The notes: generated by a model from the letters alone, not told the origin. DNA of 64,000 nt from Gemmatimonadota bacterium (GCA_036679605.1 JAZDCZ010000085.1:64001-128000); one strand, 5' to 3'. Positions 60,130 to 63,265 are shown, numbered from the stretch's first letter. Numbers and translations are program-made.

Positions 60130-60762
60130 TTACCGTGTCCCGAAGAGACGGTCTCCAGCGTCTCCCAGACCCGGTAGGATGTATCCGCGTGAATTGAGTT
60201 CTCTGTCCAGGGCGGCGGTGTAGATGCGAACCTCGGGATGTGCTTCTTCCATGCGCTTGACACCCTCGGGAGCGGCTACAAGACAGAGAAAAACGATCCG
60301 CTTACCCCCGGCTTTTTTCAGTGCCGAAACGGCATCGACAGCCGAGCCTCCTGTTGCGAGCATGGGATCCAGTACGAATAGGATTCGGTCAGCTTCGTCA
60401 CTCGGGATCTTGAAGTAGTAGTCGATCGGCTCCAAGGTGTCGTGGTCGCGATAGATCCCGATGTGGCCCACCCGCGCACTGGGTATCAGCTGGCTTATGC
60501 CCTCCACCATCCCAAGTCCTGCCCGTAGAATCGGGATCAGCACGAGCTTCTTACCGGCCACCCGCTTGCCCGACATCCGCTCGAGAGGAGTTTCCACCTC
60601 GACCTCTTCGAGGTCAAGCGACTTAGTCGCCTCGTATGCCATGAGTGTCGCGATCTCGCTCACCAACGCTCGAAAATCACGAGTGGACGTAGTCTTGTCG
60701 CGTAGCTTTGTGATCTTGTGCTGGACCAGTGGGTGATCGACCACGGTTAGGTTTGCGTGCAT
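60130..60762 (-). CDS. upp: uracil phosphoribosyltransferase
   Basis: [41 protein letters not shown]. Confidence 0.96.
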
Positions 60763-60842
60763 ATCCAGTCTCCCTGGCGCCAGTGTTCCGACGGCACAAT
60801 TTCGCGCGGCTGCGTGCGGAAGGGAAGGTGCGGTGAAGCGAG

Positions 60843-61922
60843 TTAGTTGATGAGCAGACGGCGGGCCGCACGGCGGCCGGAATCCAGTGCGCTGTGAACC
60901 CCAGCTCCATGAACTCCAGCTCCAGCCAGCTCAATGTTGCCCAGTTTCCTAACGCGATCGACGACGCAAGTGATGCGCTGAACTATGTCGTTGCTCATGC
61001 GATAAATGGTCTCTGGCCAGCGTGAGACCCAACCCGAGGTGGGCGGTTCGGCAAGATCCAGAACGGAGTCGAGTTCTGTTACTGCGCGGTCTATCCAAAC
61101 ACGGTCCGCTCCATCTATCGGGCACGCGCCTCCCGGTCGATAGAACGCCCTCAGCAGCACATAGCCGGTGGGGCAGCGGTTGGGGAACTTGGAAGAGGTA
61201 AACGTGCATGCCTTGAAGCCGGGTGCCTCGCGTGACTGCCCGGGAATCACGTAACCGGTGGCGTCGAGCGAATGACCCACTGCCTCACTGCGAAAGGCGA
61301 GCGAGATCGTGACACTCGAAAGTGCGGGAATCGTCGGAAAAGAGAGTCCCATGGAGTGGTCGGCCCCGTCGAGTAGTGCCGCAGTGACTTGTGGTGGCGT
61401 CGCCAGAACGACTGCACTCGGTGTCATGAGATCTTCGCCGTCCGCCCGGACCACCCAGCCCTGATTGTTTGGTGCGATGCCCGTCACCGTCTTTCCAAGA
61501 TTCAATTGCGTTGCTCCCAGCCCGTCGAGTAGCTTCTCGATTAGATCTCTCATTCCGGTTTCGAAGGCCACCACTCCCCTGCCCCTCAATGTTTCGTCTC
61601 CCCCCAGCCCCAACATTGCGGCAGCCGCACCCTTCGGCAGTGGCTTAAGTGACTGTCCTTCAAGGACTAAAGAGTCCAACTCTGATTGACTGACCAGTCG
61701 GTCAAGTGCTCCGATTCTGCCCAGGAACTCACGCGTTTCTGGGTCGGGGGTCACCAGGGAATCGGCTCCCAACTCCACCACATAGTTATCGCTGCGGGTT
61801 GTCTCTATCTGGCCGCCTACTCTGTCCGAGGCCTCAAAGAGTGATACTTCCAAGCCGCCACTTGAGAGTTCGTGGGCGGCGGCCAACCCTGCGAGCCCGC
61901 CACCGATGACGGCTACATCCAT
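60843..61922 (-). CDS. HemY/CgoX-like FAD-dependent porphyrinogen oxidase, internally shortened
   Basis: GGGLAG FAD motif, [33 protein letters not shown]; only 359 aa. Confidence 0.75.
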
Positions 61923-62956
61923 CCGACAAGTATCTCTTCTCCGCTCCTCTCGACCCTATAGGTCTTGATCGGCACCTTGGCAGGAGACCCTACGGGGGTT
62001 CCCGTCGCGAGTTCGAATTTCCCTCCATGCCAAGGGCACTGAAGGATGCAGGTCTCCGGATCCACTTGTCCCTCGGAGAGCGACGCACGACCGTGGGTAC
62101 AGCGGTCGCTGACTGCATAGATCTTCCCGTTCACGTTGAACAGTGCAATCGCTTCGCTGCTGAGGTAGGCTCGCTTGCTGGTACCAGGAGGCAGATCCGA
62201 CATTTTTGCCACCACCACCATGTCGCCGGAGACATCACCTGTTTCGCGGGGTCGTGTGGTCATGCTTGATCCGCCCAGAGCGTCCAGCATGTCCCACAAC
62301 GACATCTGAACGGCGGTGAAAACGGGAGTGTCGCGTTCGGTGTAACGTGACGAGATGCTGCCGCGCAGTTCCATAACGAGATCGAGGAACTCGGCCGGGT
62401 CGTCGCCCTCGAAGGCGACAATGAACTCTTGGTCGTCCAGTCCGAACGAATACGAAGTGTTGAGACGAATCTCGGGGTACTTGCGTCCTACCGTCACGTG
62501 TTCGTTCATCGCCTCCTGGCGCTTCTCGAACGGCAGACTCCACCAATCGCGCGTTTTCACGAACGGATAGACGAACAGGTACTTGTTGTCTGCCGGCCGG
62601 ACGATTGTGCGCATGTCGCCCTCGGGATCGTCGGGAAATTCATAGATCGACTTTCGCGTCATGCCGAGGTAGCTGTAAGCGATATCGAGATGACCGCCGA
62701 GCTCTGTCGAGAACACGGCAGTTTGCAGTGCCTGGAGAGTTTCCAGTGTCTCGGCTGCATGCCACAGCAACAGATCGCAGTCGCCTCGCGTACCCATCGT
62801 GCTGTATGTGCGCAGCAACAGTCTCTGATGAAAACCGTTGAGTGTCGAGCCGAATTCTTCTTTGTGGGCGATCTGCACTGCGGCCTCGAGCCTGCGCCAT
62901 GCCGGATCGACCTTTAGAAACAGGTATCTCACGAGTTGTCTTCGTTCGCTGGCCAT
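61913..62956 (-). CDS. ChdC/HemQ (chlorite dismutase family) protein fused to a C-terminal Rieske ferredoxin
   Basis: YPFVK, EH proximal His, SFGLDDQEF, then CTH...CPWH Rieske ligands in one ORF; GGAG RBS. Confidence 0.88.
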   Translation of the reverse strand: MASERRQLVRYLFLKVDPAWRRLEAAVQIAHKEEFGSTLNGFHQRLLLRTYSTMGTRGDCDLLLWHAAETLETLQALQTAVFSTELGGHLDIAYSYLGMTRKSIYEFPDDPEGDMRTIVRPADNKYLFVYPFVKTRDWWSLPFEKRQEAMNEHVTVGRKYPEIRLNTSYSFGLDDQEFIVAFEGDDPAEFLDLVMELRGSISSRYTERDTPVFTAVQMSLWDMLDALGGSSMTTRPRETGDVSGDMVVVAKMSDLPPGTSKRAYLSSEAIALFNVNGKIYAVSDRCTHGRASLSEGQVDPETCILQCPWHGGKFELATGTPVGSPAKVPIKTYRVERSGEEILVGWM

Positions 62957-63021
62957 TACCTACTCCGGTTTTTCCATTTCGGATAGCAGCGGCTGTCTTG
63001 CGGCGCTGTCGCGTGTAACGT

Positions 63022-63143
63022 AACAAGGCGGCAGAACAAGAGGCGGTAGGACAAGAGGCGGTAGAACTGGGTCATACCGCCCCTACCGCCGGTGTTGGGC
63101 GGGGAGGTGTGCGGTCCCGCCCTTCTTTACCGCCGGTGTTGGG
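63022..63143. repeat. cluster of short GGCGGTA/TACCGCC direct and inverted repeats
   Basis: ACAAGAGGCGGTAG at 63036 and 63051; TACCGCC at 63075; TACCGCCGGTGTTGGG at 63084 and 63128. Confidence 0.8.
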
Positions 63144-63144
63144 G

Positions 63145-63174
63145 TTGGGCTGTGGCGGGGCTGCGATGTATAAT
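63145..63174 (+). promoter_or_regulatory. sigma70-type promoter of tRNA-Phe
   Basis: TTGGGC-N18-TATAAT, 12 nt upstream of the tRNA. Confidence 0.5.
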
Positions 63175-63186
63175 TCTCCCCCTTCG

Positions 63187-63259
63187 GGCCAGGTAGCTCA
63201 GTTGGTAGAGCAGGGGACTGAAAATCCTCGTGTCGGTGGTTCAATTCCGCCCCTGGCCA
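63187..63259 (+). tRNA. tRNA-Phe (GAA)
   Basis: cloverleaf: GGCCAGG/CCTGGCC acceptor stem, GCTC/GAGC D arm, CT-GAA-AA anticodon loop, TTCAATT T loop; CCA not encoded. Confidence 0.97.
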
Positions 63260-63265
63260 CTCCAG

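Follow-up and report, generated by a model that had tools for sequence, protein, structure and literature searches.

A conserved fusion of a predicted coproheme decarboxylase with a Rieske ferredoxin domain in Gemmatimonadota and Chloroflexota

Introduction

The chemistry of coproheme decarboxylases (ChdC, or HemQ) proceeds through Compound I and a tyrosine radical and consumes two oxidant equivalents per heme (PMC7611857; papers given here by PMC number are cited for the accessible parts of their text). The oxidant used in the cell is an open question: in vitro the reaction runs on H2O2, yet the enzyme is harmed by it (PMC13564367, PMC7611857, PMC5157759), and its excess inactivates ChdC with cross-linking and bleaching of the heme (PMC5157759). 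HemY has been proposed as the source of H2O2, and E0′ of the Fe(III)/Fe(II) couple of coproheme-ChdC is −205 mV (PMC5157759). FMN is reported to replace H2O2 or to start the reaction (PMC13564367, PMC7611857).

The protein described here consists of a ChdC-type domain, a linker and a Rieske ferredoxin domain. In Cutibacterium acnes CpfC-ChdC and in haloarchaeal PitA (ChdC-ABM) a ChdC domain is likewise linked to a heme-related domain (PMC10427985, PMC13564367, PMC5746218), but the partner in the present case is an electron carrier and not a chelatase or a heme-binding domain, and some members add AhbAB. The best matches of the N-terminal domain, both by sequence (E 5e-29) and by fold, are actinobacterial ChdC/HemQ proteins (Streptomyces coelicolor, 9MIQ/9MHQ; Corynebacterium diphtheriae, 6XUB/6XUC). 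The Tyr motif, the proximal His and a non-Arg distal residue are shared with them at 24–29% identity, whereas the conserved distal His of the loop is missing from the fusion and a Rieske domain is present at its C-terminus. The latter resembles ferredoxins of dioxygenases (CarAc, 1VCK; TodB; BphA3/BphF) and the suf-operon ferredoxin in its small fold, its Cys2His2 boxes and Phe in place of Tyr. Unlike these ferredoxins, it is tethered, near-neutral rather than acidic, and has an arginine pair around the first box; unlike in dioxygenase systems, no reductase or oxygenase gene was recognised near the fusion. The closest unfused sisters on the ChdC tree are stand-alone ChdC-like proteins of Nitrospira and relatives, which have no Rieske domain and which we take to be "clade 4" of the literature.

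The original prediction, made from sequence, knew of no characterised Rieske fusion of this kind, and we likewise found no description of one in the accessible text of the open literature. The word "Rieske" is absent from the accessible parts of PMC10427985, PMC13564367, PMC7611857 and PMC8529089, and in those of PMC10060970 and PMC7242693 it refers to other proteins. The ChdC-Rieske architecture is visible in automatic annotations. The contrast drawn earlier between a pathway described mostly in monoderms and a genome that looks diderm loses much of its force, as diderm ChdC is already treated in reviews (PMC10427985, PMC7611857). A natural fusion with a one-electron carrier offers a direct test: comparison of a single protein in its cluster-containing and cluster-free forms can reveal if ChdC is an acceptor of electrons, a donor, or neither. 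The answer could carry over to Gram-positive ChdC, which is discussed in reviews as an antibiotic target; if the cluster is a passenger, the finding amounts to a modest annotation fix.

A single gene encodes both domains

The window is the whole stretch of DNA analysed, 64,000 nucleotides of a Gemmatimonadota bacterium (GCA_036679605.1, JAZDCZ010000085.1:64001-128000). As predicted originally, the two domains are encoded by one gene, a single uninterrupted ORF of 347 aa, and the residues that had been singled out (Y130-P-F-V-K134, H153, L165, C286, H288, C307 and H310) all occupy the positions assigned to them. The features of the locus are as follows.

61913..62956, minus strand: chdC::Rieske fusion gene, 347 aa
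62270..62956, minus strand: ChdC/HemQ-type domain, aa 1-229
62555..62569, minus strand: Y130-P-F-V-K134, predicted catalytic tyrosine motif
62498..62500, minus strand: H153, predicted proximal heme ligand
62462..62464, minus strand: L165, inferred position of the distal Arg of chlorite dismutases
62225..62269, minus strand: linker, aa 230-244, variable (6-11% identity among homologs) and predicted flexible (pLDDT <50 at 233-243)
61916..62224, minus strand: Rieske [2Fe-2S] ferredoxin domain, aa 245-347
62087..62104, minus strand: R285-C286-x-H288-x-R290, first ligand box with the fusion-specific arginine pair
62027..62038, minus strand: C307-P-W-H310, second ligand box, followed by Gly312 and Phe314 (low-potential type; PMC1847435)
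60843..61922, minus strand: short HemY/CgoX-like flavoprotein, 359 aa, overlapping the fusion by 10 nt, about 100 internal residues missing
60130..60762, minus strand: upp (uracil phosphoribosyltransferase), downstream, kept in some relatives and probably outside the module

Pfam recognised Chlor_dismutase (PF06778) at aa 32-216 (E 1e-55) and Rieske (PF00355) at aa 246-333 (E 2e-20). An AlphaFold2 model built with 117 sequences (the query and 116 of its 120 best homologs) had a mean pLDDT of 85. GC content by codon position is similar in the ChdC domain, the Rieske domain and the neighbouring genes. A stop or a frameshift between the domains was ruled out by the ORF itself, by two-domain homologs and by a contig from sequencing run X1, which spans 60700-63211 including the domain junction with zero differences, although X1 may be the source sample and is therefore not independent. 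Two runs with small shares, X2 and X3, hold diverged relatives. A promoter scan returned 0 sites. A divergent tRNA-Phe(GAA) gene lies 230 bases upstream of the fusion (63187-63260, plus strand), and in the spacer at 62960-63140, which varies between related contigs, short GC-rich words recur.

The N-terminal domain is a predicted coproheme decarboxylase

Residue conservation was counted in 148 aligned fusions, comprising the query, 104 of the best homologs and 43 distant sequences. None of the 148 departs from Y130, K134 or H153, and position 165 is occupied by Ile, Leu or Val. Pfam, AlphaFold2 and the fold search agree on the double ferredoxin-like fold of PF06778. Y130 aligns with the Tyr of the Y-P-x-x-K/R motif of ChdC and H153 with its proximal His; a Y135A variant of ChdC scores about 4 bits lower in the alignment to the fusion. 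The position of L165 was deduced from the score order of NdCld R173 variants, which fits Leu here, and from the alignment with ChdC, in whose actinobacterial members the counterpart is Ala. The firmicute-type Gln at position 165 is absent from the 148 sequences, as is a conserved distal His, a His anywhere in the loop being found in 46 of them. Scores fell below the cut-offs of both the actinobacterial HMM NF042928 (HemQ_actino; 122.7 vs 235 bits) and the firmicute ChdC HMM NF008913 (74.4 vs 253 bits).

Automatic annotations read the domain as a chlorite dismutase or a general peroxidase: "chlorite dismutase" appears in source names, and NdCld structures match the fold. This is extremely improbable, for the distal catalytic Arg of chlorite dismutases is found in 0/148 fusions, Tyr stands where chlorite dismutases have Ile (PMC7611857), and the gene keeps company with heme operons.

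Genomically, the gene is tied to the coproporphyrin or the siroheme route, and most carriers appear able to do without HemF and HemN. In the phylum, 80 genomes were grouped by fusion state: 35 fused, 25 unfused, and 20 that gave no match at E 1e-22, although PF06778 later turned up in one of these; the 80 are kin, and the counts given below are descriptive. Genes for hemF were found in 0/35, 0/25 and 5/20 of them and for hemN in 2/35, 1/25 and 2/20, respectively, the exceptions to the absence of hemN among fused genomes being the genome of the window, G001 and G151. With both hemF and hemN missing from 33 of the 35 fused relatives, the predicted ChdC function is well supported. The fusion gene is the only PF06778 gene of the window's genome. 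On the strength of the catalytic Tyr, the lack of the distal Arg, heme-operon synteny and the gene content of most carriers, the ChdC identity proposed originally is upheld, and we infer that the N-terminal domain very probably converts coproheme to heme b through Tyr130. About half of the 20 genomes without a ChdC match (e.g. G003, G005, G008, G009, G013 and G017) have no hemF, hemN or AhbD-like match to the queries used either. Catalase (PF00199) is rare in every group, with 4 occurrences in the 80 genomes.

The Rieske domain has low-potential sequence features and is specialised

All four ligands, C286, H288, C307 and H310 (C-x-H ... C-x-x-H), are invariant in 148/148 fusions. Position 312 is Gly or Ala in 147/148 and position 314 is Phe in 142/148. 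A disulfide is a feature of bc1-type Rieske proteins; none of the 148 fusions has Cys at 291 or 309, so no such disulfide can form. High-potential Rieske proteins are marked by hydrogen bonds from Ser and Tyr (PMC1847435, PMC11638306); Phe instead of Tyr marks the dioxygenase-type ferredoxins (PMC1847435), whose potential is near −150 mV (PMC1847435, PMC11638306). By these sequence features the cluster of the fusion would fall into the low-potential class near −150 mV.

That the Rieske domain is conserved, as predicted, is borne out by its invariant ligands and by purifying selection: over 13 pairs, in several of which dS was near saturation, dN/dS was 0.03–0.40 for the Rieske domain (≤0.2 in 12/13) and 0.03–0.20 for the ChdC domain. 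Arginines on both sides of the first ligand box were present in 211/222 fused domains (222 of 232 distinct ones fitted the motif pattern), compared to 1/44 free ferredoxins, a small set consisting mostly of one related group, whose single member with the pair may be a fusion fragment. Mean net charge was −0.2 for fused Rieske domains and −6.7 for free ferredoxins. The near-neutral charge and the arginine pair would fit an anionic partner such as coproheme. A split, unfused form of this Rieske domain was not found among 43 short matches: 8 of them resemble truncated fusions, and the remaining 35 served as free ferredoxins.

The original prediction assigned the domain to the same type as the suf-operon ferredoxin. 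The broad class is indeed the same, but the two are not closely related: identity is 34%, compared with 42% for a different free ferredoxin encoded in the genome, and in a 101-column tree with rough support the suf ferredoxin falls into a separate starred clade. The fusion protein scored below all NCBIfam ferredoxin cut-offs.

The fusion is conserved in two phyla

Both domains are present in all 120 best homologs listed (60–92% identity; 8000 candidates scored), of which those named by taxon belong to Gemmatimonadota. Among 301 genomes of this phylum, 70 have a match at E 1e-22 or better (including an unfused match in G173), and 33 carry the full-length fusion, 32 of these in the window's family. 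The best 80 of 596 stretches from species genomes comprised 24 fused loci (9 Gemmatimonadota, 14 Chloroflexota and 1 further) and 56 unfused ones, of which one stretch ends at a contig end. In the ESM Atlas, three clusters have the ChdC-Rieske architecture, which is commonest in Gemmatimonadota and Chloroflexota. Carried by both phyla, the fusion is no one-off. It is a real, conserved variant of ChdC that appears to be unstudied.

No Rieske gene was found in the fetched flanks of the 56 unfused ChdC loci among these 80, many of them from Nitrospira. A quick tree required up to 6 gains or losses of the Rieske domain, only 2 of them forced by starred branches; it counted L128 as unfused, though this locus is cut at its contig end. 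Around the fusion in L028, in L118 and in four loci of Dehalococcoidia type, no heme genes were recognised. Such gains and losses, the sister ChdCs that do without the domain and the fused loci outside heme operons would suit a cluster that acts as an iron or oxygen sensor gating ChdC, or that is a stable passenger unrelated to heme. We regard either role as very unlikely, because two phyla and two pathways have retained the Rieske domain on ChdC, and the domain has a conserved surface of its own.

Heme-operon context and the short HemY

Among 32 fused loci of relatives, the fusion is followed by hemE in 30, by a short hemY in one and by an unrecognised gene in another, and ctaB lies directly upstream of the fusion in 22. 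A coproporphyrin-type operon is present in many Gemmatimonadota. In 6 Chloroflexota loci hemH is located directly 3′ of the fusion. The proximity of ctaB may mean that ChdC uses H2O2 as usual while the Rieske domain, as a donor, quenches over-oxidised enzyme or reduces the heme b product for its release or hand-over to heme O synthase and apo-proteins. The damage done by excess H2O2 (PMC5157759), the protective role proposed for the extra domain of PitA (PMC5746218) and the predicted ability of unfused relatives to work without Rieske all agree with such a function. However, ctaB is a neighbour of unfused ChdC as well, in 3 loci, and none was seen next to the Chloroflexota fusions; we consider the function unlikely.

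The next gene in the window had been called hemY-like, and it does exceed the TIGR00562 cut-off (102.5 vs 97.85 bits). The product is short, profile positions from about 105 to 218 being missing. Short HemY was found in 34/34 fused genomes of the family, in 0/25 unfused genomes and in 1/20 others; the fused genome G076 is without it, and fused genomes outside the window's family carry long HemY. The fused family genomes are kin, and the link with short HemY may reflect a single inheritance. Genome G083 has a short HemY (L180:11388-12425) and no ChdC match. No ferredoxin reductase gene was recognised beside the fusion in annotated loci.

Parallel heme routes and an oxidase gene cluster

In the genome of the window (G000; 6.7 Mb, 6.3% contamination), as in G001, hemE and hemH are absent between the fusion and hemY. 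Contig C93 of the same genome carries a complete HemN-type operon, ccsA-hemACDB-hemE-hemN-hemH-hemY (G000:C93:38467-48145), in which ccsA and hemACDB were named by reading of the sequences; hemF was not found in this genome, which is 96.5% complete. Contamination as the source of the C93 operon was rejected, its composition being typical and the G001 operon being 66–82% identical to it over the eight genes compared. Judging by gene content, a HemN route exists in this organism alongside the ChdC route; as the HemN route is complete, the organism would not depend on the fusion. A second, orphan ferrochelatase gene is located at G000:C296:99332-101233, divergent from a radical SAM gene; G001 shares both the C93-type operon and the C296-type ferrochelatase.

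The fusion is often the last gene of a cluster of oxidase genes, following ctaB (gene names are our reading of the sequences). In the window's genome and its relatives this cluster (G000:C156:36000-51100, locus L097; L090-L094) contains genes for an Mrp-like ATPase, small proteins, a USP-domain protein, an AhbD-like radical SAM protein, a cytochrome bd-like subunit and c-type cytochromes, and then coxBACD and ctaB; a second, partial copy is on G000:C69. The radical SAM protein of the cluster fits no curated family. Its gene is often about 11.6 kb upstream of the fusion. AhbD-like proteins occur in 35/35 fused, 15/25 unfused and 3/20 other genomes, always below the cut-off of 500 bits (about 240–345 bits in fused relatives); a closer AhbD relative, at 458–466 of 500 bits, lies inside 4 Chloroflexota fused loci. 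The inventory of hemF, hemN and AhbD suggested originally has thus given fused relatives that mostly lack the first two and all have an AhbD-like gene.

These genes bear on the function that the original prediction gave to the Rieske domain, that of an acceptor which takes the electrons of oxidative decarboxylation and passes them on, allowing peroxide-free heme synthesis at low oxygen. As FMN can stand in for H2O2 (PMC13564367), a low-potential acceptor is possible, and anaerobic turnover of ChdC may be as well (PMC13564367, PMC7611857). The arginine pair might raise the potential of the cluster, and the cytochrome bd-like subunit gene recognised upstream also fits. On the other hand, the low-potential features make oxidation of tyrosine by the cluster implausible. 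In Haloferax, ChdC (PitA) is the aerobic enzyme and AhbD the anaerobic one (PMC5746218), and AhbD-like genes accompany the fusion in every fused relative and in the four Chloroflexota loci; an anaerobic role is therefore weakened. Given also the oxidase cluster, we consider the acceptor function rather unlikely.

ChdC is the constant partner of the Rieske domain

Among 66 long matches to a distant member, 34 are ChdC-Rieske-AhbAB triple fusions, and the named ones are from Chloroflexota (clusters P0124, P0313 and 32 more; L100:6001-8181 and L102:5941-8526). The one triple fusion scanned scores above the two cut-offs for siroheme decarboxylase. In these Chloroflexota, one polypeptide joins the enzymes that begin and end the siroheme route. 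Neither HemY nor HemH was matched in the genomes of L100 and L102. The best 80 of 596 stretches led to 27 genomes, for which completeness figures are not given, 17 of them fused and 10 unfused. AhbA is present in 8 of the former, all without HemY and HemH, while the other 9 carry HemY and HemH but lack AhbA; AhbA without HemY is likewise found in 3 of the 10 unfused ones. The 80 genomes of the window's phylum yielded no AhbA, which means that the siroheme route does not form the local context. Upstream of the fusion, immediately or within about 400 bases, all 8 siroheme-route loci carry a conserved gene for an aldo-keto reductase (L100:4917-5915, L102:4820-5809, L113:4961-5962 and five more). 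DUF1802 is found near the reductase of L100, and the same reductase near an unfused ChdC in L174.

Since 8 of the 17 further fused genomes have no HemY match, HemY is not an obligatory partner of the Rieske domain, and the originally proposed link between the HemY and ChdC steps cannot be general. Service to another heme enzyme, with ChdC as a mere scaffold, can be imagined for the flavin of HemY, the ferrous iron of the chelatase, or AhbC/AhbD. The distribution of short HemY in the family, the position of hemH after the fusion in 6 Chloroflexota loci and the co-occurrence of AhbD-like genes would agree with it. It is nevertheless quite unlikely: those 8 genomes are without both HemY and HemH, fused genomes outside the family have long HemY, kinship may explain the short-HemY link, and AhbD-like genes are also present in 15/25 unfused genomes.

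As the Rieske domain stays on ChdC in both the coproporphyrin and the siroheme route, ChdC is its only constant companion. Because of this constancy across two upstream routes, the Rieske domain probably exchanges electrons with the coproheme of ChdC. A complex prediction with two ChdC domains, the Rieske domain, heme and 2Fe-2S (median 0.29; mark, 0.32) carries no weight either way. The Rieske domain seems dispensable for ChdC chemistry as such, because unfused ChdCs have no flanking Rieske gene and three of their genomes have AhbA without HemY.

A tentative donor mechanism

The potential needed for tyrosine oxidation is far above −150 mV. A cluster at about this value cannot plausibly oxidise tyrosine and is yet near the coproheme couple; for this reason a donor role was chosen. 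We tentatively favour, over the acceptor function, a tethered Rieske domain that donates single electrons to the iron of bound coproheme, with O2 replacing free H2O2. The reduced cluster would give one electron to Fe(III)-coproheme, and O2 would then bind the reduced coproheme. A second electron would yield a peroxo/Compound I state, from which the known Tyr-radical chemistry would follow, twice per heme. The short HemY flavoprotein is a candidate electron source, in this lineage only.

The donor mechanism is consistent with the lack of Ser, Tyr and disulfide features in the Rieske domain, with the lack of a conserved distal His to activate H2O2, with the ready inactivation of ChdC by excess H2O2 (PMC5157759), with siroheme-route carriers that have no HemY, the proposed H2O2 source, and with the clusters of oxidase genes in which the fusion often comes last. 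Against it, the first electron transfer is slightly uphill on borrowed potentials (−150 vs −205 mV), no reductase gene accompanies the fusion in annotated loci, and firmicute ChdCs, which also lack the distal His, use H2O2 (PMC7611857).

More speculatively, the fusions may form a ferredoxin-fed, O2-activating lineage of ChdC that makes its own peroxide equivalent, as P450s do. It would plug into the coproporphyrin route, with the shortened HemY as a possible source of electrons, and, as a three-module protein, into the siroheme route; free ferredoxins might then be unrecognised partners of ordinary ChdCs.

Other ChdC fusions

Further combinations were seen in clusters P0130, P0339, P0340-P0347 and P0258: PCP_red-ChdC in Nitrospiria, ChdC-DUF1802, ChdC with a PF17805-type domain and no listed Rieske, and ChdC with PF00117, the last in six clusters.
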